Of a stretch of 39,697 nucleotides of DNA, positions 2,072-35,153 are shown in pieces; positions within the stretch are counted from its first letter, which is position 1; every line of letters begins with the position of its first letter. The notes under the pieces are model-generated. The model did no database searches, had not been told where the DNA came from, and was given only the letters and a program-made list of their open reading frames with translations. The DNA lies in contig JBDRNG010000039.1 in NCBI GenBank assembly GCA_043811275.1, positions 1 through 39,697 on the forward strand. Direction: 5' to 3'. Both the position numbers and the translations under genes were made by a program. Source of the DNA: Candidatus Falkowbacteria bacterium (lineage in GTDB: Bacteria; Patescibacteriota; Patescibacteriia; Patescibacteriales; XYC2-FULL-47-12).

Positions 2072-2229
2072 ATTTAATTAAAAATTTTAAATAGCACACG
2101 GATTAAACGGATTAAATAGATACGCACGGATAAATCCGTGTAAATTCGTCCAATCCGTTAAATTCGTGTTCTATTATTTTTTTCAACCGTCCGATATTTT
2201 CGGACACTTCACATAAATAGCAATTTAAC

Positions 2230-11604: not shown

Positions 11605-11902
11605 TCACTACTAATTACTAATCCCGAGTACTCGGGACTAATATACCAAAATTCGTTGTCTCGTTGCTTAGAAATTGTTATAATTAGAAATTTGTTGCTT
11701 CGAAATTCGAAATTAGCCCGCCCGCCTAACTGCGTTAGCAGGCTGGGCAGGTAATAGAAATTAGAAAATCGAAATTCGTATTTTTCTAATTTCCAATTTC
11801 GATTTTCTATTACCGCGCCCGACTGACGCCGTCAGCGTTCGGGCGAGCGATTTTCTAATTTCGTGACAACTAATTTCTAAAATTGGTATATTAGTAATTG
11901 GC
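11605..11902. repeat. Nested hairpin complex between rpsK and rpsD
   Basis: Outer TTACTAAT..ATACCAA / TTGGTATATTAGTAA arms, inner 7-mer (AGAAATT/CGAAATT) arrays in inverted orientation, and three GC-rich palindromes inserted. Confidence 0.8.
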
Positions 11903-13109: not shown

Positions 13110-13358
13110 TGTTCAAGTTATTTTGTGCGGATTTATTAGCATATTAAACCATTAATCCGAATACTTCGTGTCTATTTAGAATTTCCTGCAACTATCCGAA
13201 TACCACGAATTCTATATATCCAAATTTGTAGTAAACATCTGGGGCATTTTTACCCCCAAAGCTTTAGCGTAGGGCGGGCACGTAGTTGCATGAAAGTATA
13301 GAGATGCACAGCTCATTCGGATTAAACGATCATCTATATTAATAAGTCCGTACATATT
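13110..13358 (-). repeat. Rod-like structured element, copy 2, filling the infA-rpmJ spacer
   Basis: Shares GTTCAAGTTATTTT..CGGATTTA..AAACCATTAAT.CGAATA..TGCAACTATCCGAATACCAC with copy 1. Confidence 0.8.
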
Positions 13359-16511: not shown

Positions 16512-16524
16512 ATATTTTAAACAA

Positions 16525-16879
16525 TTATTTTATTAATGGTTTTATTAATTTTTTTAATTTTGGTAGATCATTTTGGCATGTTTTCCATACTATTTCAAAG
16601 TCAACTTCAATATATTGATGAATAATAAAATTACGCATTGCAATAATATCGCGAAATTCAATTTCAAAATTTTTACTTTTAAAACTTTCGCTTAAATTAT
16701 TAATGGCTTCTAATGGCTTCGCCGATTGTGATTAGTTCTCTTTCTACGGCATCTTTAACTAAATCATTTTTTTTAAATTTTTTATAATCAAAGCCATTTA
16801 AATATTTCTTTATTTTATTAATAGCACCCCATATATGATTTAAATATTCAGTGTCATTTTTTGGTTTATTTATTTTCAT
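16525..16879 (-). pseudogene. HEPN (DUF86/HepT-like) toxin frameshifted by a 10-bp tandem duplication
   Basis: Removing one TAATGGCTTC copy (16701-16720) restores a 114-aa ORF with DAVERELITIGEA and the RNFIIHQY motif. It overlaps the MNT stop. Confidence 0.85.
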
Positions 16880-17174
16880 ATATTTTTTGCGCTTTTTTAA
16901 TTACCGACGATCTAAAAAATCGACTGATTGCCCGAGGAGTCAATAAATCTACTGGTTTGTCTATACTTTTAGAAAAATTTCTTTGAATATGGGATAATTC
17001 GAAATAACCAATGGACGCATTTTTTTTAAACTCAATCAAAATATCCACATCGCTTTTTGGATGTGGTTTTCCATAGGCGTAAGAGCCAAAGATGGACACT
17101 CTTTTAATATCTTTTTTATGAGGACTTTTTTCTATAGCTTGTTTAATTTTTTTCTTAATTTCTGTTTTATTCAT
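16866..17174 (-). CDS. Minimal nucleotidyltransferase (MNT/MntA-like antitoxin)
   Basis: IFGSYAYG...SDVDILIEF and VDLLT motifs, upstream of the HEPN gene. Confidence 0.9.
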   Translation of the reverse strand: MNKTEIKKKIKQAIEKSPHKKDIKRVSIFGSYAYGKPHPKSDVDILIEFKKNASIGYFELSHIQRNFSKSIDKPVDLLTPRAISRFFRSSVIKKAQKIYENK

Positions 17175-17306: not shown

Positions 17307-17345
17307 AATTAATATTTTTTACTTCTTAATTCTTAATTCTAATTT

Positions 17346-19511
17346 CTACTCAAACTCCCCCACCTGAATCTTTCGCAAATCATCATTTTTAATACCTAAA
17401 CTTAAAAATCTCATTACATTGTAAGCGGTGTTACCATCGCCTAAATAATATCTTCGGCCATCGCTTGGGTTAATATACCAAGCTTCTCCGTGAGACTCCA
17501 CTTGCAAAGCGATTCTACCTTTCAATCTATTTATTAAACTTTGATTATAATTAAATTTTCCTTCTTTGTCCGGACGATAACCATTGAATATTTCTGATTT
17601 ATCATCAAAACCATCACCATCTGTGTCTGCTTTGTTCGGATCAGTGCCAATCGCTATTTCTAAATTATCTGGAATCTTATCTCCATCAGTGTCTTGCAAT
17701 GTATAAATTTTTTCTTGGATACCAATTGGGATAGTTTCTAAATCAGCGTTAGTTATTCCTAATCCCAGAGATCTCATGATGTCGTAAGAAGCCTGCCCGT
17801 CTTTCATATAGAACTTATTTTCTGATTCTGGATCTACATACCAGGCTTCGCCGTTGTTTTCTACCTGTAATAATATTCTACCTTTAATTCTATTAGTTAA
17901 TTCTTTATCTATTTTTTGCACTAATCTCTTTTCCATTTCCACTATTTTATTTTCTAATTGCGAGATGGTGCGTTCTAGCTTCAGGATGAGTAAGTCAGCC
18001 TTATCTTCAGAATAGCGGGCGTGGATTGAAGGTGCTTTTTTTATTGCACTGTTTGTTTGTGTTGCATTTTTAATTACATCATCTACTTGTCCATCACCTC
18101 CAACCGTAATTGTTTTAGTTGATGTATTATTAGCTTCATCGCTTTCAGTAATATCATTATCAGCATCAAGAGTAACCTTAACTGTGTATGTACCCGGAGT
18201 CATACCAAAAAATGTTGAGGTAATTTCACCTGAAGCTATTTTTTCACCTTCAGGTACTTCATTTCGCAACGTCGTTTGTCCATTAGTTAATACTATTGCA
18301 AAACCTCCATTAATTTCGCCAGGGCCAAGATTACTGTATTTTACTGTTATACCACCATCACCTTCTGTAATACCTTTAAAAAATAACTCCACTCCTACTT
18401 CAAGTTCTCTGGTTTCTAAATCTGTCTCGCCGTTTTCTTCGCCTTCATAAATAAACATCTGCGCATCACTACAGGCTCCGTGTCCAAAATCACCCGTTGA
18501 ATTACAAACTTTATATTCATAAGTACTCCCACTCATTAAGCTGTAATCTTCTCCAAAAATCCTCTCATGCTTAGTTGTTTGTGAATTATGAAAACCTCCA
18601 TTAATAATATTATTGTTCCATTTAGTGGTAAACCAATGGTCAGAATCAGCAAAACGCCATTTAACATTATAAAAATGACTCTTTAAATTTGTAGTCCATT
18701 CTGCTTTAGCTGTATTATTGGGTAAAATAGTCAGCGCTATATTATTAAAAACAGGAGGTTCACCCGAACCCACTGTTTTAAAAGTGATATAATCTTCGTC
18801 TTTGTTATTATTATTAACAATCCCATTATTTACCTCTGCGCTTGATATGTGGCATGTATATTCTGTATTTGGCTTTAGGTAATCAATGCCCATAGAATGA
18901 TAAATTCCGATTACATTTACATTAGTAGTTGGTTTTATTTCTTCATCAATACCAAACGCGCTACAAGAGGCTTCACCATTACTCAAAATATAAGGAGTTT
19001 TCCAATAAAGTTCAGCTCCAGTCCAACCTATGAACCTTGCTTGAGAATTTTTAATTTCAAGTTTTTTATTTCCTATAACATCATCAAAAGTAATAGATTT
19101 AACTAATGTATTATTACTTTCATCTGTTTCAACAAGTTTGTCTAAAGAATCAGGATAATTAACAATAAAAGTAATTAGATGTGTCTTGCCATCTGGTCTA
19201 ATGCCAAAATCGCTAAGTCCTATTTGAATATTTTTTGTTTCATTTTTATCATATACTCTGCCTGTGCCACTATATGATTTTTTTTCATCATACAAAGCTT
19301 TGACAAAATAATTTAATTGAGTGAGTGACTCTGTTTCATTAATATCTTTTATGGTCATACCAACACTAACTGTATCATCACCTATCACTGTTTGAAAGCT
19401 ATTTTCATCAAAAACAAAATCAGGAATTCCTTCTGCTTGCGCGCTATTTAAATTTAATATAATAAATGCCAGCGCGCAAACTAAAGTGAATAAAACTATT
19501 TTCCTAAACAT
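17346..19511 (-). CDS. Secreted surface protein with CARDB/Ig-like domains and CPR-type C-terminal repeats
   Basis: Signal peptide, two E.DE.NN CARDB ends, duplicated GRI.LQVE..GEAWY..P modules around DTDGD calcium-binding-like repeats. Confidence 0.75.
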   Translation of the reverse strand: MFRKIVLFTLVCALAFIILNLNSAQAEGIPDFVFDENSFQTVIGDDTVSVGMTIKDINETESLTQLNYFVKALYDEKKSYSGTGRVYDKNETKNIQIGLSDFGIRPDGKTHLITFIVNYPDSLDKLVETDESNNTLVKSITFDDVIGNKKLEIKNSQARFIGWTGAELYWKTPYILSNGEASCSAFGIDEEIKPTTNVNVIGIYHSMGIDYLKPNTEYTCHISSAEVNNGIVNNNNKDEDYITFKTVGSGEPPVFNNIALTILPNNTAKAEWTTNLKSHFYNVKWRFADSDHWFTTKWNNNIINGGFHNSQTTKHERIFGEDYSLMSGSTYEYKVCNSTGDFGHGACSDAQMFIYEGEENGETDLETRELEVGVELFFKGITEGDGGITVKYSNLGPGEINGGFAIVLTNGQTTLRNEVPEGEKIASGEITSTFFGMTPGTYTVKVTLDADNDITESDEANNTSTKTITVGGDGQVDDVIKNATQTNSAIKKAPSIHARYSEDKADLLILKLERTISQLENKIVEMEKRLVQKIDKELTNRIKGRILLQVENNGEAWYVDPESENKFYMKDGQASYDIMRSLGLGITNADLETIPIGIQEKIYTLQDTDGDKIPDNLEIAIGTDPNKADTDGDGFDDKSEIFNGYRPDKEGKFNYNQSLINRLKGRIALQVESHGEAWYINPSDGRRYYLGDGNTAYNVMRFLSLGIKNDDLRKIQVGEFE

Positions 19512-19620
19512 ATGTCTTTTTTAATTGTTAAATTGTTTTATTGTTAATAACAATGAAACAATTTTATTAATTAATAATTTTTTAACTTTAAGCTTTAGAC
19601 TTTGAACTTTAGACTTTAGA

Positions 19621-21553: not shown

Positions 21554-22030
21554 CCCCACAAATCTACAAATCAGCTACAAATAATACAAATCTCTATTTT
21601 TGTAGATTATTAGGATTTAAAATTCTAATGGATTTAACACCACTAGGTGTGAAGTTAGCTAAAATAGCTAGTTTTAAACCTGTAATTTGGAGATACTGTT
21701 TAACTTGATCCATATTCTGTTTTGAAAAGTGATTTCCTTTTTTTATTTCTAAAACTATTTTTTCATCTACAATAAAATCTATATAATTCGTAGCTATAAT
21801 TTTATTATTAACTCTAATTTTATACGGAGCTTGTCTTGTGTATTTTATGTTTCTGCTAATAAAATATTGTTCAATTCCTTTTTCGTAATATTTTTCTTTA
21901 TATCCATAACCTAACTGATTATATGTTTCAAATAATATACCTACTATCTGATAGCTTAAATCTTTATGTAGCACTTTATTGTCGTTCATAGCATTTGTAT
22001 TATTTGTAGCTGATTTGTAGATTTGTGGGG
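21554..22030. mobile_element. Inverted-repeat-bounded GxxExxY cassette (putative mobile or intervening element)
   Basis: Perfect 38-bp inverted repeats at 21554-21591 and 21993-22030 enclose exactly one gene. Confidence 0.65.
21594..21989 (-). CDS. GxxExxY protein (PD-(D/E)xK nuclease-like)
   Basis: LGYGYKEKYY, IDFIVDEKIVLEIK, Q...YL and LANF motifs. Confidence 0.92.
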   Translation of the reverse strand: MNDNKVLHKDLSYQIVGILFETYNQLGYGYKEKYYEKGIEQYFISRNIKYTRQAPYKIRVNNKIIATNYIDFIVDEKIVLEIKKGNHFSKQNMDQVKQYLQITGLKLAILANFTPSGVKSIRILNPNNLQK

Positions 22031-24016: not shown

Positions 24017-24119
24017 GCTTTAGTTGATTAGTTACATAGTTACACAGTTGACTAATTTTTAAAAACAACACCTAATTAACTAAACAACTATTTAACTATG
24101 TAACTGATTAACTGATTAA

Positions 24120-24667: not shown

Positions 24668-25696
24668 CTACATCTTTTCCGCTATCCGCATTTTCGCGCT
24701 GCGGGCGCGCGGATTTTGCTTAATTTCCTCTATTGATGGTATTACAACTTTTTTAGTTATAATTTTTAATTGCGCCTGATGCTGACATTGACAGATCGGC
24801 ATAGCCGGCGGACAAATGCAATCTTTAGACTCTTGTTTAAAAAATTGTTTAACTATTCTGTCTTCCAACGAATGGTAAGAAATAATTACTACACGACCGC
24901 CCTGATTTAAAGCTAGGACAGATTGTTCTAATAATGCTTTTAAATTTTCCAGTTCATTATTAGTCGCGATGCGGAGCGCCTGAAAAGTCCGCGTTGCTGG
25001 GTGTATTCGCACTTTTCTATAATTTTTAGGATTGCCTCTATAACTTTCAGGATTGCCTCGCCGTAGTCCCGAGTCACTCGGGACGAAGGCGGGTACTGCT
25101 TGAATGATAATGTCCGCCAATTGTTTAGCTGTTCGAATCACTGGAGCGCTCCTCCGCCCGGAATGCATGGTTTCTGGGCTCCTCCTTGTTTGGACAATCG
25201 CTCCGGCAATGCGATCAGCATACCTTTCTTCTCCAAAATTTTTAATAATTTCAACTAATTTTTCTTTACTATATTTATTTATAATTTCTAAAGTTTTTTC
25301 GCTTTCATCTTTATTATTAAAAGCCATATTTAACGGCGCATCCAATCCAAAAGAGAATCCGCGATTCCGGTCTTGGAGTTGAGCTGATGATAAACCAAGA
25401 TCAGCAACAAGGCCATCAACGGCTTCCAACTCATTTTCTTGAATAATATTTTGTAAGTGTTTAAAATTATCATGGACTAATGTTATATTTTTGTTTTTAA
25501 AAATTTTTTGAGCATTTTTGATGGCCAGCTCGTCTGCGTCAATTGCAATTACTTTTCCTTTGGCGCCAACTTTTTTAGCAATCTCTTTAGTGTATCCTCC
25601 GCCACCTAGGGTGCAATCAACTATTACTTGCCCTGCTTGCGGACGCAAATATTCTATTGCCTCCTTAAGCATGACTGGTGTATGTTGATAGGCCAT
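24668..25696 (-). CDS. rsmH: 16S rRNA m4C1402 methyltransferase with in-frame insertions
   Basis: HTPVML, DCTLGGGG, DLGLSS.Q, HPATRTFQALRI, SYHSLEDRIVK and NPRARSAK. Confidence 0.97.
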   Translation of the reverse strand: MAYQHTPVMLKEAIEYLRPQAGQVIVDCTLGGGGYTKEIAKKVGAKGKVIAIDADELAIKNAQKIFKNKNITLVHDNFKHLQNIIQENELEAVDGLVADLGLSSAQLQDRNRGFSFGLDAPLNMAFNNKDESEKTLEIINKYSKEKLVEIIKNFGEERYADRIAGAIVQTRRSPETMHSGRRSAPVIRTAKQLADIIIQAVPAFVPSDSGLRRGNPESYRGNPKNYRKVRIHPATRTFQALRIATNNELENLKALLEQSVLALNQGGRVVIISYHSLEDRIVKQFFKQESKDCICPPAMPICQCQHQAQLKIITKKVVIPSIEEIKQNPRARSAKMRIAEKM

Positions 25697-25964: not shown

Positions 25965-26393
25965 TTATGCTAATTCCCCTAATCCTTCAGCTATTTTACT
26001 GCTATTTTTTTCTGTTGTTTTACTATATTTTTTCCAAGCTGATTCATCCCAAATTTCAATTCTATTATATAGCCCCGCAATAATAGCCTTCTTTTTTAAA
26101 CTAGCATAGTCGCGTAAATATTCTGGCAATAAAATTCTACCCTGTTTATCAAATTCTGCTTCCATTGCTCCGGCTAACATGTAGCGGCCAAAAGCGCGGG
26201 TATTTGCTTTATTAATAGGAGCGCTGGCAATTTGTTCTGCCAACTTCTTCCATTCGTCTTGGGAGTAAAGAAAAAGACAGTTGTCAAGACCACGGGTAAC
26301 CACTGCCCCGCTTTTTAACTTAGAACGAAACTTTGCCGGCACGGCCACTCGCCCTTTATCGTCTATATTATGTGAGTACTCTCCAATAAACAC
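25965..26393 (-). CDS. mraZ: Transcriptional regulator MraZ
   Basis: FIGEY.H.IDDKGRV.VP, DKQGRILLP and IEIWD, GTG start. Confidence 0.97.
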   Translation of the reverse strand: MFIGEYSHNIDDKGRVAVPAKFRSKLKSGAVVTRGLDNCLFLYSQDEWKKLAEQIASAPINKANTRAFGRYMLAGAMEAEFDKQGRILLPEYLRDYASLKKKAIIAGLYNRIEIWDESAWKKYSKTTEKNSSKIAEGLGELA

Positions 26394-26430
26394 TAGGTTG
26401 AATTTAGAATTTATAATTAAAAATTTAGAA

Positions 26431-26787
26431 TTAATTTTTATTTGCGTTTTTAACGCTTTTAACTAAAATGCAAATAATTTCCTCACTTTCTTCTATTAAT
26501 AATTTCATTTTATCTTTCTGCATTAAACCAACTGCTATTATCATTTCTAACCAACGTTTAGTTTCTTTTGCTTCTTTTAATGATATCCTTAGATGATTTA
26601 TAAAATCTTTTCTAGAAACACCTCCTTTAGCTTGAACTATATTAGAATTTATTGAAGTAGAGGAATTTATTACTTGCCCGCCAATTTTCCAAGCAACAAC
26701 ATTATTTGGCAGGCACAAAACCATTTTTATTACTCTTACGGCAAATTGAAAAGTACGTTCATCAATATCCCAAATCTTTTCATTCAT
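26431..26787 (-). CDS. Four helix bundle protein (23S rRNA IVP-like family)
   Basis: ERTFQFAVRVI, QVINSSTSI.SNI, SRKDF...L.ISLKEAKET..WL. Confidence 0.9.
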   Translation of the reverse strand: MNEKIWDIDERTFQFAVRVIKMVLCLPNNVVAWKIGGQVINSSTSINSNIVQAKGGVSRKDFINHLRISLKEAKETKRWLEMIIAVGLMQKDKMKLLIEESEEIICILVKSVKNANKN

Positions 26788-26825
26788 ATACTATTTTTTA
26801 ATTCTAATTTCTTAATTCTTAATTG

Positions 26826-27003
26826 CCTGTAAGGTGCAAGAGAAGTATGGCTGAACTCAGACGGATCCAAATTCACCCAAACCCCTTCTATACCTTAGTG
26901 ACTTAATTACTAAGCTTAAGGCGCTTAGCAACCTTTGTCCCTCTAACAGGACTTTTTATTTTTGCAGGTTTGAGCGTTTATAGTCTAAGCTCAAACTATC
27001 TGC
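26826..27003 (-). ncRNA. Candidate structured leader RNA upstream of mraZ
   Basis: Several stems with G-U pairs favouring the minus strand, e.g. UGAAUUUGGA-UCCG-UCUGAGUUCA and GUUUGAGC/GCUCAAAC. Confidence 0.4.
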
Positions 27004-27004
27004 T

Positions 27005-27335
27005 GTTCAATAAATCATTTATGGATCTATTAAATATAATGAACCATTAATCCGAATAATATGTATTTATCTAAAATTTCATGCAACTATCCGAATGTTC
27101 CGAATTCTGTTTATTAAATTTAATTCGAATGAAATAATTTGTAGAATTTGCCTGCCCGCAATGTAAAGTATAGCTTTGGCAGGCGGGTAACAAACATTTG
27201 GGGCATTCGCCACGCCCGTCCCGCTGACGCAGTCGGTCGGGCGGGGATTTATTTGTGTCAGAGTAGATACGTACAGAGTATTTGGATTTCCGCCCGAGGC
27301 GGATCAGCCTTGGGCTGAAAACGATCACAGATGTT
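27005..27335 (-). repeat. Rod-like structured element, copy 3, interrupted by three palindromic insertions
   Basis: AACCATTAATCCGAATA and TGCAACTATCCGAAT blocks shared with copies 1 and 2. Confidence 0.7.
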
Positions 27336-27362
27336 TTAGAAGTATACTAAATTAATTTTAAT

Positions 27363-27426
27363 CACCACTATTCCCCACTCATCACCATCTGTATTTCATC
27401 ATACTCCACTTTTCCCTATTTGTCAA
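27363..27426 (-). promoter_or_regulatory. dcw operon promoter with MraZ-type GTGG direct repeats
   Basis: Minus strand TTGACA (27426-27421), 17 bp, TATGAT (27403-27398), with GTGG/ATGG repeats at about 10-bp spacing overlapping and following it. Confidence 0.75.
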
Positions 27427-27480
27427 CGCAAATTCCCCAAAAAAATTTTTAATAGATTTATTAGGAAATTTAAAAATAAA

Positions 27481-27520
27481 AAAATAAAAAACTCGTCTGT
27501 TGATAAGACGAGTTATTTTT
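27481..27520 (-). terminator. Terminator after tsaB
   Basis: AACTCGTCT/AGACGAGTT stem flanked by A and T runs. Confidence 0.65.
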
Positions 27521-27669
27521 TATTTATAAAAATTCAGCTTTGCCTGTGGACTACTCTTACTATTACACAAGTTATAAACATCTTTTACACTTTATCATAT
27601 AAATCTTACTTGTCCTGTAGAATGACTGGAATTAATCCTTGCAAATATGTTAGCAAAAGATTTATATGA

Positions 27670-28155
27670 TTAATATGATTTCTTACTTTTTGTTATACTC
27701 GGCTCCTTATCATAAAACGGCTCTACTGTATTATTCTTTTTACAGTTTTTCACTCTCTGATAACCTTTCTTTATTAATTCATCTATATTTTCAAATTCAT
27801 TCGCTTTTATACCAACCACTGAAATATTTAATCCATAAGCTAGCGCGTTAGCAGTGGCCACGCCTATCCGTGTAGCTGAAAAAGGTCCTGAACCATTTAC
27901 CACTACAATGCCTTTTATCTGACTTAAGTCCAGAGCTCTCTGGACTTTACCCCGTCCTACGCCAGTAACGCAGGGTTTACTCCGCCTAGAATTTAAATTC
28001 AGGCAGAGTGAACCCAGTAATTTATCAATTGTTTTAAGTAATTTCTCTGATTGCTGGTACTTTGCCTTAACTCTGCTTTTTGCCATTAAAACACCCTTAT
28101 CGCCTAAAGCGACAGTCATAATCTCGGAATCGGTTGTGTTTATGTATAAAGTCAT
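27670..28155 (-). CDS. tsaB: tRNA t6A biosynthesis protein TsaB, short form with an in-frame insertion
   Basis: LYINT, QSEKLL..ID.LL, GIVVVNGSGPFSATRIGVATANALAY. Confidence 0.88.
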   Translation of the reverse strand: MTLYINTTDSEIMTVALGDKGVLMAKSRVKAKYQQSEKLLKTIDKLLGSLCLNLNSRRSKPCVTGVGRGKVQRALDLSQIKGIVVVNGSGPFSATRIGVATANALAYGLNISVVGIKANEFENIDELIKKGYQRVKNCKKNNTVEPFYDKEPSITKSKKSY

Positions 28156-28507: not shown

Positions 28508-29443
28508 ATGACAACACTGTATGAAGACAGAAAAAAAGATGAGAATGTCGAGGAAAACAAAAATAAACCCGTCCAGGTCGAGGATATACTTGATACCGAT
28601 GAGGATTTTGACGAGGGCGAAGACCTTCCTACAGATGATGATACGCTCAAAGATTTTCTGAGCAACAATGTCAAAAAGACACCTCCGGTAAGTGGCAAAA
28701 GAACAAACCCGTCCAACAACTTCGCCTGCGGATTTCCCAAGTGGTTGAAGCGGTTCATCCCGGTCACAACCATCATTATCATCGGCTTGCTTCTCTGGAA
28801 TCACTTTGATCGGCTCGAAGCAGTCATTGACCACGCGGGTATTCAGGATGCCATCGACGGTTCCACAACAGGAATGAAAATCAACTTCCTCGAGGATGCG
28901 GTTTTAGGTAACGATGATGACACTGGACTCGTTGAAAAAATAAACGAGATCAACAAAAAAATTGACAGTTTCGACGAAAGCTTTACTGGGTCAATCAATC
29001 AAGTCAACACGACGATAACTCAACTGAACGTTACAGTCAATGCCCAGAATGAAAAAATTGACAATTTACAGATCACTGTCGACAAAATTGCCAATCAGCT
29101 ACTCGGCACTGGCCACAGCTTGCGTCGGACCACCGGACAATTCGGTTGGGCTAAAACCAAATTAACTCACGCGAATGAAGTGGCTTTCATCCAAGACATC
29201 CTTCCGGAGATCAAAAAAAACACCACTGACAACCCAGACATGATCGTCCGAGTTGTCGGACGTGTTGACCGATCTTCCACGAGCAAGGTCAACGATGGCC
29301 AAGTAAAAGTCGGAAATGGACGAGCCAACTACATCGCCAAAATCCTTCGGGACAATGGCGTGAAAGTGACAAAAACCACATGGGCATACAGCTACTCGCC
29401 CAATCGACGCGTTGTTGACGTCTACGTGGAACTACCGAAATAA
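28508..29443 (+). CDS. Single-TM coiled-coil protein with divergent OmpA/MotB-like C-terminal domain
   Basis: TM helix IPVTTIIIIGLLLW, heptad region, VVGRVD...N...G..RA..I...L...GV...PNRRV pattern. Confidence 0.6.
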   Translation: MTTLYEDRKKDENVEENKNKPVQVEDILDTDEDFDEGEDLPTDDDTLKDFLSNNVKKTPPVSGKRTNPSNNFACGFPKWLKRFIPVTTIIIIGLLLWNHFDRLEAVIDHAGIQDAIDGSTTGMKINFLEDAVLGNDDDTGLVEKINEINKKIDSFDESFTGSINQVNTTITQLNVTVNAQNEKIDNLQITVDKIANQLLGTGHSLRRTTGQFGWAKTKLTHANEVAFIQDILPEIKKNTTDNPDMIVRVVGRVDRSSTSKVNDGQVKVGNGRANYIAKILRDNGVKVTKTTWAYSYSPNRRVVDVYVELPK

Positions 29444-29549: not shown

Positions 29550-32500
29550 TTATATATTAACAGATGATTCCATGTTGTTCTGTAAAATTTTAATTAATTC
29601 ACCCCTTCTCATGTCTTTAATATTTAATTTTATATCATTGTTTTCATTTTTGAATTGGATTTGTTTTGGTGTTAATATAGCGTTTGACTCTATTGTACCT
29701 TGTTTATAACTTATTTTTATTTTGTCATTTTCTATTTTCTCAACATCATACCCTTTATCATCCCCAACAAGCGCCTGTAAAGCCGCTTTGTTGTTATTAA
29801 TATCATTATCAAATAAATCTCGTAATGCACTTTGTTCAGTTTCAGTTAAAGTATTATAATTAAATAATTTTTCTGCCCCTTCCCCCTTACCAAAATACCC
29901 TTCCGGATCCTTTAAATTATTTTTCATATCTTCGCTTGAAATATTTTCTAATTTTAATTCTCCTATTTTAGAGCCATCACTACTAAACAAAATAGCCTTG
30001 TCACCAAGTATTCTTACTTTTGAGCTGTCATTATATTTAAAAATTATTTCATTACTTTCAGTTATACTAACTGATTTTATTATACCTAAATCTTTATCAA
30101 TACTTCCGAGAATTTCTGAAGCATCTCCTTTGTCACTAAATATATTTAACAACGCCACTTGCATACTTTCATCAAAATATCCCCTATCAACTATTTTAAA
30201 ATTATCAGCTAACTCCATTGGAGGAATCCCTGTCTTTTCAGCTAAGCTATTAAACTTATCTAATCTATTTTCTGGAATACCATGCGCTTTAAGGGTATTT
30301 AATCTTGATTGCTCATCTGGTGTTCCTGCCTGCTTTTCTACCACAAGAGCTTGCTCTTGAGGTTTTACTTCTGTCCCTGTTGTTCCTACTTCAGGTGTAG
30401 CATCAACTTTAGATTCATTAACATCAGTTACCTTCTGATTTAGTTCTTCTGCTTTCTCTACTGCTTCAGGAGTATCACTTCCTGATTCTGGCTCCGCTAC
30501 TTCCCCACTACCTATAGACTCTTCCGCTATACTTTGCGTCTCTATTCCTCCCCTTGCTAAGGGGGGGCTAGGGGGGGTATTTTTTTCACTCCCAACCTCT
30601 GTAACATCCTTAACACTATCTACGCTACTATCCCCTTGCACTGTAGCTAAAATTTTAACATTTTCCGGACCATCAATTTCTTTATCAACAATCGCCACCT
30701 CCATATTCTTTCCGTGAAAAACTGCTTTACCGTTTTCTGCGGTAAATAAATTACTTTCTTGTGGAATTATTAATTTTCCATTATCATCAACGTTTAAAGA
30801 AATTACTTCTTGCTGATTTTCGCCAGTAGAAAATAATATCTTTACTTCCTTTCCCTCTTCCACAAGACCTTTAACATTTTCTTCCTCTAACATATCCTTA
30901 ATATCTAAAACAAAATCTCCATCCTTATTTATCCCAGTTCTTTCTACCCCGCCCCACTTAAGCATCTGTTCATTCTCACCCTTTATCCACTCACGATTTT
31001 TTATGGTAAACGTTTCTTGTGAGGTTTCTGGGGTTGTTTCAGGTTCAGGTTCAGGTTCTGGTGTTGTTGGTTCTGATAGTTTTTGGTTTTCTATTTGTTT
31101 TTCTAATTCTTCAACCTCGTCTTTTAATGCGTCTGCTAAATCATGATCACCTCTTTGTTCATATCTATCTATTAACTGTTTTCCCGCCACAACTTTTTTA
31201 TCTAAATTTCTCTCTCCTGTAAATTTATCCTCTAACATACTAAGAGGTGTTTCTGGGGCGGAAGTTTCTGGTGGGGTTGGGGTTGATTCTTCAATTTTAC
31301 TAACTTTTGAATCTGATACTACCTCATCACCGCCCCAAACATACCCACGTATTAACCAACCCAAAGTAGCAAATGTGGCGCCCAACGTTACTCCTTTACC
31401 CATTTGTTTTAATAAATACGTCTTTTTCTCTTTAGCTACTTTTGAATATTTTTTATTTAAACGATTTTCTAATCGCTCTGGTAACCTACCTAATTGTTTT
31501 ACTAACTTATCATTTTCTATGTCTATATCATCTGCACTATTAACAACGCTATCTGCCTTGGCAAGTTTTTGCATTAACTCATAATGATTAACAATCCTTT
31601 TATTTTCTTCACCAAAATTAACTAAACCACTATCAATCTTTTCTGATGTATAATTAATCCTTTCTTTCAAGAAAGCAAGAATTTTTTTTATCTTTTCTCT
31701 GTTCTTGTCATCTTGTTTGCCTTTATTAAGAGAACTATATTTATTAAAATCACTAATTGTATATTCTAATTTTTTAGTTAAACTTTCAGCGTCTACAAGA
31801 TCATAAGTTTCTTTGCTTTTATCTTTTGTTCCTTTGCGCCCTAATTTTTCGCGCTCAATTAAGCTCTCTTTCCCTCTTTTTCTGGCTATAAGCCCACCTA
31901 TTAATCCAGCCACTGCCGGAACTGCTATAGCTCCTAATAAACTAACTGTTACCGTTCTAGTAATAAAACCTGCTCCAGTATATATCCCTCTTTCAGTTAA
32001 AGTATCTTTAAGTGTTTTTCTCCATAATCCCTTATCACTAATATTTTGTAATTCTTTTTCTACTTCAGGATTAGTATTTAAAAATTGATTAAATTGAACA
32101 TTGCGATCAATTTCAAATATTTTTTCTTCTGCCTTTTTGTCATAAAGCATATTTTCCATCAATTCTCCGCGAGCTTTTTCATAATCTTCTTTAACTTTAT
32201 TCCATTTTTCTATATCCTTATTACTAGCTGTACTCTCATACGACCACTCATGTGGTATTTTACTAAACTCCGTAGCTATTTTATTAAATTTTTTAATAAC
32301 ACTTTCATGCACATTTTCCAATCCTGAGGCATATTGAATTTCTAACTCACTTTTTTCATTCACTTCTACTTCTGTATTAAAATTTTTCATTCCGTTTACT
32401 AACTGCTGTAAAACATCTTTATGCATTTCTATACCACCTGCTTTTATTTCAGCTAATTCTTCTTTTTCCTTTTTAGCTATTTGATATTGCTTAGTAATTC

Positions 32501-35153
32501 CTTTCCATATTCTAGAAAAAATACCAACATTAGATAAATCTTTATGATAACCAGCTCTAGACGCATCTTGTGTTCTACCTAGAGTAATTTGTTTTAAATT
32601 TTCTAAAACTAAAAATTGTTGTCCTTCTGAGAGCTCATCAAATCCTTCTACCTTTTTCATGTCTTCAAGGGATATATTAAATTTTTCTAATCCACCTTCA
32701 ACGCTTGCTTCATGTATTTCATCTGGAATCTCTATTTCTTTCTGTTCTTCTTCAATAGATTCTGCTGGTTTTTCTGTTGATTCTACAAATTCTGCTTCCG
32801 CTACACTTCCTGATGGATTAAGCTTTAATAAATCATTAATAAGAATAATTTTTTTTACTTCTTTATTTTCTACTTCAACACTCTGCACAGTTAACGAAGT
32901 TTTATCTGTTACTGGCTGAGGATTATAAATAATTTTTTTAATCACAAAGTCATTCTCAATGTCACCTGAACTTCTCTTTACTTTAACATAATCTCCTGTC
33001 TCAAATAATGCCTCACCCACTCTAAATCTATTTTTTTCATCTTTTTCTGCATTTTCAAGCTTCTCTGTCTTTTTTTTCAGCTTTACCTCTCCCTCTTCTT
33101 CTATTGGCTTTTCTTTTACTTCCTCCTTATCTTTCTGCTCAATTGTCTCTTTTAATCTTTCACTAAAAAGATGCGACTCAAATAAATGATCTGAAGGCGC
33201 TAATTCTATATCTAAAAGACTATCATACTCTTTTAACTTACTAACAATTTTGTTAATTTCATCATCGCCCTTAGTAGCAAGGTCTTCTGTATTAAATACA
33301 TCATCTGTAAACTTAAATATTTCATCAAGTAGATCATCCTCAATTTTACTTTCTGGCAAAGAAACATCTCCTTCAGATGCTTTTCTTCTTCTATTTTTTA
33401 GCTTTTCTATCTTTGATTTTATACCTAAAGCAAGCTCATGCTGTATTTTTATAGGCTCCATTTTTTCAATTTTTTCTTCCTCTGCTTCTACCGATTCTTC
33501 TTCTTTTATTATTCCTCTTTCTTTAAGTAACTCTATAAATTCTTCTTCGGATATACCAGTGTCCTTTAAAAGTTTCATAGCTAAATCTAATCGTTCTTGA
33601 TGACTATATTTTGATTCCGCTTTTTCATATGCATTTAAAGCTAACTCTATCCATGTTTCTGTAGTTTTTTGCTTAACTGCTGACCCAATTTCAATTGCCT
33701 CACCCTCTGATGATAAAATAAATTTTTCTACTAGTTTATCTGTTGGACTATTTTTATCAACAGTCCCTGCTTCTTCTTTCTGTTTAATGCTTTTATCCCA
33801 TTTAATAGTTTCTTCATCCCATTTGATAAGCTTATTTGTCTGTAAATAAGTAAAAACATCTTCTCCCTCTTCTTTTGCTTTTTTGGTATCCTCTTCTTTT
33901 TCTACAGAATATAAACGCGCAAATTTTTCTCTTGTTAAAGGCCCTTCTTTTTTAAATATTTTTAATCCTAATTTATTTTTTTCACTAATTTCTTCTTCTG
34001 TTTCTGTTTCTGTTTTTTCAGGAGGAGTTGTTTCCTGTTCTTCTTCAACATCCTCTACAGCATCGTTTAATGTTGTTTCTATTTCTTTATGAGTTAATAT
34101 TTCTTCAGATTCTTCCTCCTCTATTATTCCTCTTTCTTTAAGTAATTCTGTAAATTCTTCTACAGACATACCCGCTTCCGTTAAATCATCCTTGAGTAAA
34201 TATAATAAATCTTCATGACTCTCTTCTGATTTCATTTCTTTATATGTAGTTAAAGCTAACTCTATCTGTGGTTTTTCCTCTTCTGTTTTTTGTTTAACAT
34301 CAAACTCATCAACAAATTCTTTTACTCTTTCTGAAGTAACTTCTTGCTTGTTTTCTTTTTTTGCTTGCACCGCTTCTTCCTTTGACATTTTAGGAAGCAC
34401 AGGTTTAGTAATTTTAGAATCTTCTTTCTCTTCCTCAACCGTCGGCGCAGTTTCAGTTTTTTTAGGCCAATTTAATTCTACTAATTCATCTGGGGCAACA
34501 TGTATTCTTATTTTTTTTCCTTTTTCTCCTTTTTCTAAAACATAAGATCCTATTTCACCGTTACTATTTTTTACTCTGCCAGCGACTTTCCACCCTTCTT
34601 CTCGTATACCATCTTTATTTTTACCTATCACCTCTTGGCCTATTTGAAAAGCGCCCTTTTCTTGTATTTTTATCTCTGGCTTTTCTTCTTTAGCAGGAAA
34701 CTCTTTATCAAGGTGTTGCGCTAATTCTTTAGTGAATTCTTTTCTACCAGTTTCTTTTTTTTCTAAAAATTTTAAAAATTCTTGTTTAGTAGTATTATAT
34801 TCAGCAAATTCATCATCTTCGGTCATAACTCCTATGATAGCATCCTTATCATACACTCCTAACTTCACTAATTCATCATAAAGATTAATCAAATCATTCA
34901 TGTTCGCTTTTTCTTGAGATGCAGGCTGTTCTTTTTCAGCCTCAATATCCTCTCCTATAATAACAGGGGTGGGTTTTGGTTTTTCAGATTTAATTTTTTT
35001 ATCCTTTTCTTTTGATTTTTGCTTTTCTTGCTTTAGCTTTTCTGATCTTCCTTGAAATCCTGCCTTATTGTCAACAAAATCCTCTCCATTCTCTTCTTCG
35101 TCTTGTCCACTCTCATTTTGCCTTGATTTATATTTTTCTCTTTCATCTACCAT
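29550..35153 (-). CDS. Giant Glu/Lys-rich protein with internal repeats and two hydrophobic Gly-rich segments
   Basis: 1867-aa uninterrupted ORF, duplicated IELAL...EEF.ELLKERGII.EEES module, membrane-like segments in the C-terminal half. Confidence 0.8.
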   Translation of the reverse strand: MVDEREKYKSRQNESGQDEEENGEDFVDNKAGFQGRSEKLKQEKQKSKEKDKKIKSEKPKPTPVIIGEDIEAEKEQPASQEKANMNDLINLYDELVKLGVYDKDAIIGVMTEDDEFAEYNTTKQEFLKFLEKKETGRKEFTKELAQHLDKEFPAKEEKPEIKIQEKGAFQIGQEVIGKNKDGIREEGWKVAGRVKNSNGEIGSYVLEKGEKGKKIRIHVAPDELVELNWPKKTETAPTVEEEKEDSKITKPVLPKMSKEEAVQAKKENKQEVTSERVKEFVDEFDVKQKTEEEKPQIELALTTYKEMKSEESHEDLLYLLKDDLTEAGMSVEEFTELLKERGIIEEEESEEILTHKEIETTLNDAVEDVEEEQETTPPEKTETETEEEISEKNKLGLKIFKKEGPLTREKFARLYSVEKEEDTKKAKEEGEDVFTYLQTNKLIKWDEETIKWDKSIKQKEEAGTVDKNSPTDKLVEKFILSSEGEAIEIGSAVKQKTTETWIELALNAYEKAESKYSHQERLDLAMKLLKDTGISEEEFIELLKERGIIKEEESVEAEEEKIEKMEPIKIQHELALGIKSKIEKLKNRRRKASEGDVSLPESKIEDDLLDEIFKFTDDVFNTEDLATKGDDEINKIVSKLKEYDSLLDIELAPSDHLFESHLFSERLKETIEQKDKEEVKEKPIEEEGEVKLKKKTEKLENAEKDEKNRFRVGEALFETGDYVKVKRSSGDIENDFVIKKIIYNPQPVTDKTSLTVQSVEVENKEVKKIILINDLLKLNPSGSVAEAEFVESTEKPAESIEEEQKEIEIPDEIHEASVEGGLEKFNISLEDMKKVEGFDELSEGQQFLVLENLKQITLGRTQDASRAGYHKDLSNVGIFSRIWKGITKQYQIAKKEKEELAEIKAGGIEMHKDVLQQLVNGMKNFNTEVEVNEKSELEIQYASGLENVHESVIKKFNKIATEFSKIPHEWSYESTASNKDIEKWNKVKEDYEKARGELMENMLYDKKAEEKIFEIDRNVQFNQFLNTNPEVEKELQNISDKGLWRKTLKDTLTERGIYTGAGFITRTVTVSLLGAIAVPAVAGLIGGLIARKRGKESLIEREKLGRKGTKDKSKETYDLVDAESLTKKLEYTISDFNKYSSLNKGKQDDKNREKIKKILAFLKERINYTSEKIDSGLVNFGEENKRIVNHYELMQKLAKADSVVNSADDIDIENDKLVKQLGRLPERLENRLNKKYSKVAKEKKTYLLKQMGKGVTLGATFATLGWLIRGYVWGGDEVVSDSKVSKIEESTPTPPETSAPETPLSMLEDKFTGERNLDKKVVAGKQLIDRYEQRGDHDLADALKDEVEELEKQIENQKLSEPTTPEPEPEPETTPETSQETFTIKNREWIKGENEQMLKWGGVERTGINKDGDFVLDIKDMLEEENVKGLVEEGKEVKILFSTGENQQEVISLNVDDNGKLIIPQESNLFTAENGKAVFHGKNMEVAIVDKEIDGPENVKILATVQGDSSVDSVKDVTEVGSEKNTPPSPPLARGGIETQSIAEESIGSGEVAEPESGSDTPEAVEKAEELNQKVTDVNESKVDATPEVGTTGTEVKPQEQALVVEKQAGTPDEQSRLNTLKAHGIPENRLDKFNSLAEKTGIPPMELADNFKIVDRGYFDESMQVALLNIFSDKGDASEILGSIDKDLGIIKSVSITESNEIIFKYNDSSKVRILGDKAILFSSDGSKIGELKLENISSEDMKNNLKDPEGYFGKGEGAEKLFNYNTLTETEQSALRDLFDNDINNNKAALQALVGDDKGYDVEKIENDKIKISYKQGTIESNAILTPKQIQFKNENNDIKLNIKDMRRGELIKILQNNMESSVNI

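Follow-up and report, generated by a model that had tools for sequence, protein, structure and literature searches.

A likely mobile DNA cassette in the mraZ leader of a Candidatus Falkowbacteria bacterium: a four-helix-bundle gene of the S23p family between inverted arrays of heptamers

Intervening sequences (IVSs) within 23S rRNA are cut out by RNase III without ligation. That of Coxiella burnetii encodes a protein of the S23p family; in the portion of the source available, this IVS is given as 428 nt long, with terminal inverted repeats of ~28 nt and tandem heptamers before the start codon, and S23p is described as decaying (PMC4990558). REP/REPIN-RAYT systems and TIRtrons likewise consist of a small gene within inverted repeats, each protein group having its own repeat type, and many gene-less hairpin doublets tied to the cognate gene lie in extragenic space; RAYT is an HUH tyrosine transposase, and REPs are short palindromes with a GTAG end (sections of PMC3116915, PMC3733652). 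Avd of the diversity-generating retroelements (DGRs) is a basic protein with a four-helix fold and is accompanied by an adjacent reverse transcriptase (RT) (PDB 4DWL; excerpts of 10.1101/2023.10.23.563531, PMC10053308). In Beggiatoaceae, arrays of the heptamer TAACTGA end just upstream of start codons and are described as direct repeats, with no partner arm or cargo gene and no known transfer mechanism; the main text of that paper does not use the terms "four helix", "S23" or "intervening" (PMC4679880).

The locus described here lies in a window of 39,697 nt, contig C39 of a genome of 0.66 Mb (G000, 34% G+C, 59% complete; other G numbers denote relatives' genomes, which measure 0.7-1.4 Mb, and L numbers denote loci). 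The DNA is present in metagenomes from groundwater and biofilm. Along the minus strand, a tsaB-like gene is followed by a terminator, a promoter, a leader of ~1 kb, mraZ, rsmH, an ftsL-like gene, a PBP gene, a GxxExxY gene, and a DUF11 gene. An earlier note on this DNA had placed a four-helix-bundle gene between the mraZ promoter and mraZ, inside an imperfect inverted repeat of 7-mers; both arms that it quoted are present, and the gene order agrees, the promoter being a predicted one (Table 1). GTGG boxes at 27409, 27378, and 27368 are presumably MraZ operators.

Table 1. Coordinates of the mraZ-leader cassette, its surroundings, and related elements in the window
Feature	Position	Strand	Remarks
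Terminator	27514-27490	-	3' of tsaB-like gene
Predicted mraZ promoter	27398..27426	-	TTGACA-17-TATGAT, 11/12 consensus, best promoter-like site
Conserved host leader hairpin, outside cassette	26830..26897	-	directly upstream of insertion site
5' arm, ~four 7-mer units (AATTAAG type)	26798..26824	-	ends 10 nt before ATG
Four-helix-bundle gene, 118 aa (S23p, Avd-like fold)	26431..26787	-	TIGR02436 / PF05635
3' arm, ~five complementary 7-mer units	26400..26434	-	overlaps stop codon of four-helix gene
mraZ, host gene downstream of cassette	25965..26393	-	TIGR00242
Gene-less hairpin of 8-mer repeats	24022..24113	.	ftsL-like/PBP junction
Sister cassette, GxxExxY gene (21594-21989) in perfect 38-nt inverted arms	21554..22030	-	junction after PBP gene
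Lone array of AATTAAG units	17310..17347	-	behind stop codon of 721-aa gene

The four-helix gene scores 81.8 bits against TIGR02436 (cut-off 24) and 65.5 bits against PF05635 (cut-off 33.8). Its arms form a 27-nt inverted repeat (26408-26434 and 26798-26824), 85% complementary and 363 nt apart, beyond which the 3' array continues to 26400 and ends 6 nt before the mraZ GTG start; the whole cassette occupies 425 bp between the conserved leader hairpin and that start codon. By local alignment the arms score 34, whereas shuffled sequence averages 16.2 (sd 2.6); none of 5000 mononucleotide shuffles and none of 100 dinucleotide shuffles (z 6.5) attains this score, and in flank complementarity the gene ranks 11th among the 1174 ORFs of the genome. 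Two public DNA contigs, one of them possibly from the source sample, span the cassette with 0 differences, and no joint skipping it is found among the joints listed from contigs of four DNA runs. A structure model from a 109-sequence alignment (pLDDT 94.8) has four helices and matches 2RLD at TM 0.87 and 2GSC at TM 0.83-0.86; the fold shared with Avd, which the earlier note had mentioned, is recovered as a weaker match to 4DWL (TM 0.78, 12% identity, E 0.09). The protein is basic, with a net charge of +6, and would probably be a homopentamer, by analogy to a Xanthomonas protein (described in part of PMC4990558) and to the five chains in 2RLD.

In protein family, length, terminal repeats, and the heptamers before the start codon, the cassette resembles the Coxiella IVS, and it is kin of the ORF-bearing rRNA intervening sequences, but by location it is not one of them: no rRNA match lies in 26300-27700, and the cassette sits in an mRNA leader and its relatives at gene junctions, whereas the Coxiella element sits in rRNA. 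The two differ also in the state of the protein and in behavior. dN is well below dS in 11 of 11 pairs of four-helix genes (dS being near saturation in distant pairs), which indicates purifying selection rather than decay; gene-less hairpins and copies at several loci are seen here, and neither gene-less derivatives nor movement between loci belong to the Coxiella IVS description in the available part of PMC4990558.

The insertion site was compared at mraZ loci taken from 30 of 61 genomes, 20 of them with the conserved leader hairpin. This hairpin has both-side changes at 10 of 20 predicted pairs among 21 aligned copies (19 genomes, some with two copies) and is likely a cis-acting RNA; an Rfam search of the mraZ leader gave no family at gathering score and chance-level matches only. 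A second stem lies beside it near 26915-26940, and at 26940-27330 the leader has more nested hairpin repeats, part of which recruits many contigs (summed depth 60-250 vs ~10). The interval from hairpin to start codon is a short spacer of 7-38 nt in 10 of the 20 leaders, contains some other insert (71-242 nt) in 7, and accommodates a four-helix cassette in 3, where it measures 436-458 nt; without its 425-bp cassette the window leader would keep 11 nt, similar to the empty sites. G008 carries an orthologous cassette at this site (60% protein identity, same 7-mer arms), in which a T-to-C change of the 5' arm has its counterpart in the 3' arm, so the inverted repeat of the window both surpasses shuffled sequence and recurs at a homologous locus. 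The same site holds, in G060, another four-helix gene, interrupted by an internal stop; in G040, a gene-less hairpin of a similar 7-mer; and in G001, which belongs to the same genus and has a 98% identical MraZ, an unrelated 242-nt insert. At the PBP stop codon, each of six family genomes inspected has a different element.

It is highly improbable, given these comparisons, that regulating mraZ and the division cluster is the dedicated role of the cassette. Such a role would suit a cassette found at one site in both G000 and G008, with another four-helix gene there in G060 and a 3' arm that stops just short of the mraZ start; the cassette is missing, however, from 17 of 20 leaders, including that of G001, the G060 copy has its internal stop, and the closest homologues are at unrelated loci, a patchy distribution that weakens the idea.

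TIGR02436 matches are found in 47 of the 61 genomes in up to 15 copies (317 matches, 150 of them listed). Sources for the survey were 30 loci among the matches listed, 100 further regions, the mraZ loci, and G000; the 148 profile matches yielded 133 distinct genes after removal of short matches, start- or stop-less ones, and duplicates, and 132 were scored once a gene at a contig edge had also been removed. Arms that beat all 100 dinucleotide shuffles flank 112 of the 132, and in 126 of the 132 at most 5 shuffles reach the observed score. Median arm scores are 38 for own pairs, 16 for cross pairs, and 17 for the direct orientation, and the arms hold a median of 4.7 units. Among GxxExxY genes, 42 of the 50 scored (53 matches) have arms; in G000 itself 5/5 TIGR02436 and 4/4 GxxExxY genes carry arms beating 100/100 shuffles. 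Two unrelated cargo families thus use one design, as had been claimed from the window alone; that the two window cassettes share one transcript is suggested by gene order. The survey of flanks proposed in the earlier note also answered its question whether period tracks cargo, and it does: the 112 four-helix arms have period 7 in 76, 8 in 18, 9 in 17, and 5 in 1, against period 7 in only 5 of 42 for GxxExxY (Fisher 3e-10, a value that overstates the difference because kin are not independent).

Within the four-helix family the repeat unit follows the protein at short range. Along a FastTree protein tree, the 5-mer cosine between arms is 0.77 at distances <0.5, 0.42 at 0.5-1, and at most 0.07 beyond; similarity of arms therefore tracks the tree at short distance only, and, taken globally, the Mantel correlation is weak (rho 0.09, 8/499 permutations). 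At other loci, the units in both arms of the nearest homologues (G007, L226, L157, and G096; 58-69% identity) have drifted. Of 300 genomes of the phylum, one has a close homologue (E 1e-36); a scan for related loci gave one relative in metagenomes and none in genome contigs. Neighbors are co-oriented with four-helix genes in 118/123 cases upstream and 115/121 downstream, by crude ORF calls, where the background in G000 is 88% and 86%, respectively. An Rfam scan of 20 selected loci showed some cassettes (L122, L123, L142, and L159) between tRNA genes, in a 16S-23S spacer, or directly behind tmRNA.

Copies at unrelated sites, together with the comparison at mraZ, make it very probable that the cassette is mobile as DNA or through a copy. 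Near-identical four-helix genes with unrelated flanks occur within G041 (99%) and within G045 (100%, the pair being only 2 kb apart, so that local duplication is possible), and G055 has three copies at 89-90% at non-homologous sites. The two closest GxxExxY cassettes of G000 are 85% alike over 484 nt, the likeness ending at the arms, and the window GxxExxY cassette has a paralogue on contig C30. Many gene-less copies of the window GxxExxY arm pair are found in G001 and in G000; they have two slightly different arms and face either way relative to transcription. In the DNA-run contigs, a joint across the window GxxExxY gene leaves 26 other letters between the arms, and such gene-less copies elsewhere are its most likely source. 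Reading of flanks by eye made no consistent target duplication or terminal motif evident. Gene-less inverted repeats of several families also mark other junctions of the window (2090-2175, 11684-11880, 13152-13325, 19517-19577, and 39478-39541, besides that in Table 1).

The earlier note had extended its observations to a general mRNA intervening-sequence system; on such a view the arms would be kept for RNA pairing, RNase III would excise the cargo, and the stem would restore the spacing of flanking signals. In its favor, the genome has an RNase III gene, the predicted RNA fold pairs arm with arm at a probability >0.9 across most of the inner arm, and the change in G008 is mirrored between its arms. 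RNase III cuts the Coxiella IVS, which carries heptamer repeats and has a stem of 28 bp (as stated in part of PMC4990558). The fit to junctions is tight as well: in 67/101 cases no more than 20 nt separate the 5' arm from the upstream stop, and in 62/98 the 3' arm lies between -10 and +20 nt relative to the next start. The window stem, however, is weak (-13.9 kcal/mol) and has a translated loop of 363 nt to close, and in most relatives the mraZ site is empty or otherwise filled.

A stem selected in mRNA should favor G-U over A-C on the coding strand, and the mismatch scoring used treats the two alike. In four-helix arms, G-U and A-C number 117 and 121 (95% interval of the G-U share 0.43-0.56), G-U making up 117 of 700 mismatches (16.7%); the corresponding counts are 62 and 51 for GxxExxY arms and 45 and 56 for gene-less hairpins, all such counts in tandem arrays hinging on the alignment, which limits the test. 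The RNA controls, in contrast, show the excess, with 74 G-U vs 26 A-C in the mraZ leader hairpin (21 related, non-independent copies) and 19 vs 5 in 39 terminator-like hairpins. At protein identities of at least 75%, own arms reach 42 and kin arms 39 (p 0.12, n=54), and at 60% identity own arms win in 88/101; shuffling the order of units retains 35 of 40 points of pairing score. Since kin arms pair nearly as well and the unit-order shuffle retains most of the score, complementarity comes mostly from unit identity, and inverted arrays of binding sites fit better than a tuned RNA helix. Lacking a coding-strand G-U excess, with nearly interchangeable kin arms and with gain, loss, and duplication at the DNA level, the elements lend no support to the proposed mRNA system, and we regard that proposal as distinctly unlikely; the strand-bias result turns attention away from RNA processing and toward mobility as DNA. 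As RNase III is present, the arms are predicted to pair, and the Coxiella analogue is cut, processing may occur without being the reason for the arms, so that an RNA stem and its cutting are possible as a side effect.

An RNA-level route to mobility can also be considered, in which the Avd-like protein binds cassette RNA and recruits a DGR-type RT in trans. The fold match to Avd and the strong sense orientation of cassettes would accord with this route, as would the single RT of G000 (PF00078, at G000:C14:17589-18200, on another contig than the window). The known homologue Avd binds RNA, and a stem-loop is contacted by all five protomers (excerpts of 10.1101/2023.10.23.563531). The arms, however, have no RNA strand bias; in contrast to DGRs, no RT gene occurs among the window ORFs or next to the four-helix cassette, identity to Avd is as low as noted above, and the presence of an RT is not associated with the family (23/47 four-helix genomes vs 5/14 without, p 0.54, in incomplete genomes). 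Retro-mobility therefore appears improbable. Obligate pairing with GxxExxY is likewise unsupported, this gene being missing from 17 of 47 four-helix genomes (again incomplete); with RT unrelated to the family and GxxExxY absent so often, neither is established as a partner.

The reading that we favor, at about even odds, is that of a small mobile DNA cassette inserted between the mraZ leader hairpin and the mraZ start, whose protein recognizes the repeats of its arms. It builds on the architecture and its family-wide recurrence, the presence and absence at the mraZ site, the copies at unrelated sites, the co-inheritance of unit and clade, the selection on the protein, and the gene-less hairpins of like units. 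The arms would act as inverted arrays of DNA binding sites, ~five units of which would be bound by the basic, probably pentameric protein. This protein might serve as a specificity adaptor for an activity that cuts and joins and that the host provides or that acts in trans; gene-less hairpins could then be non-autonomous derivatives, and transcription reading through from host promoters would express the cassette. Passive formation of an RNA stem would give RNase III a possible substrate, which would explain how a cassette is tolerated inside 23S rRNA. Plain co-inheritance would also make unit and protein co-vary, and the weak Mantel correlation and the drifted units of the closest homologues count against this reading, as do the flanks with no evident target duplication or terminal motif, the listed joints with none that skips the cassette, the genomes rich in repeats but lacking the cognate gene, the protein's having no known catalytic role, and the RNA binding of Avd; co-orientation of neighbors above the ~87% background also fits an RNA-level role.

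The abundance of gene-less hairpins bears on whether the protein drives movement or is a passenger, the hairpins being mobile via another enzyme (e.g., GxxExxY nucleases) or via slippage or template switching. Hairpins scoring at least 34 occupy 109 of 524 junctions in G000 (39 clearly periodic, the rest including other repeat families), far outnumbering the 9 gene-carrying cassettes, and the four-helix protein has no known catalytic residues. GxxExxY and four-helix counts correlate (rho 0.63), which would suit a passenger, although GxxExxY is missing from the 17 genomes mentioned and the periods of the two cargo families differ. One repeat family has at least 10 matches in 11/13 genomes with the cognate clade, in 13/34 with other four-helix genes only, and in 0/14 without any, numbers inflated by overlapping matches and by the cassette's own arms; repeats do persist where the cognate gene is missing, as in G041 (99% complete, 59 matches) and some other genomes, but the family tested is nearly absent from the 14 genomes that have no four-helix gene. 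As the unit also tracks protein clade across genomes and loci and the gene is under purifying selection, a passenger role seems unlikely.

By analogy, the closer parallel to how the mobile cassette would work is a REP/RAYT pair, but one that has no known transposase. The two have in common gene-less inverted doublets that are spread through extragenic space and linked to a cognate gene. Its cargo is not an HUH tyrosine transposase by profile and fold searches, its arms are tandem arrays of 7-9-mers instead of short palindromes, and, unlike REP/RAYT as described in the sections available (PMC3116915, PMC3733652), gene-carrying cassettes themselves appear at new sites. The Beggiatoaceae arrays share the position just upstream of start codons and differ in that the cassettes have both a partner arm and a cargo gene (main text of PMC4679880). 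The similar cassettes that many related bacteria have at gene junctions likely represent mobile DNA of a kind little described so far; the literature covered, which leaves out most subscription papers, gave no account of cassettes outside rRNA genes, nor does the main text of PMC2864571 connect Gut-1 with S23 or intervening sequences. The Coxiella IVS has the look of such a cassette after insertion into rRNA. A wider proposition, possible but doubtful, is that TIGR02436 proteins confer specificity on mobile DNA of a large, hitherto undescribed class that does without transposases: Avd-like rings would read their own heptamer arrays and drive the spread of cassettes, with or without a gene, into junctions of transcribed genes, with ORF-bearing rRNA intervening sequences and intergenic heptamer arrays as products. 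The results touch two matters, where ORF-bearing rRNA intervening sequences come from and what the S23p/four-helix family does, and the pairing of protein clade with repeat unit offers a direct binding test with built-in negative controls. If true, the reading of the cassette as mobile DNA would explain hairpins at ~1/5 of gene junctions in a small genome and may point to an ancestral job of Avd.

Other parts of the window have features of their own. The 342-aa rsmH product has an apparent in-frame insertion at ~25040-25180 that includes palindromic repeat sequence, and its NCBIfam match is broken into two stretches. A 1867-aa ORF (29550-35153) has no Pfam match, nor has a 311-aa ORF on the plus strand (28508-29443) in an island of higher G+C. 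On the minus strand at 16524-17174, an MntA-like nucleotidyltransferase is followed by an ORF with a frame change midway, which may be its HEPN-type partner.
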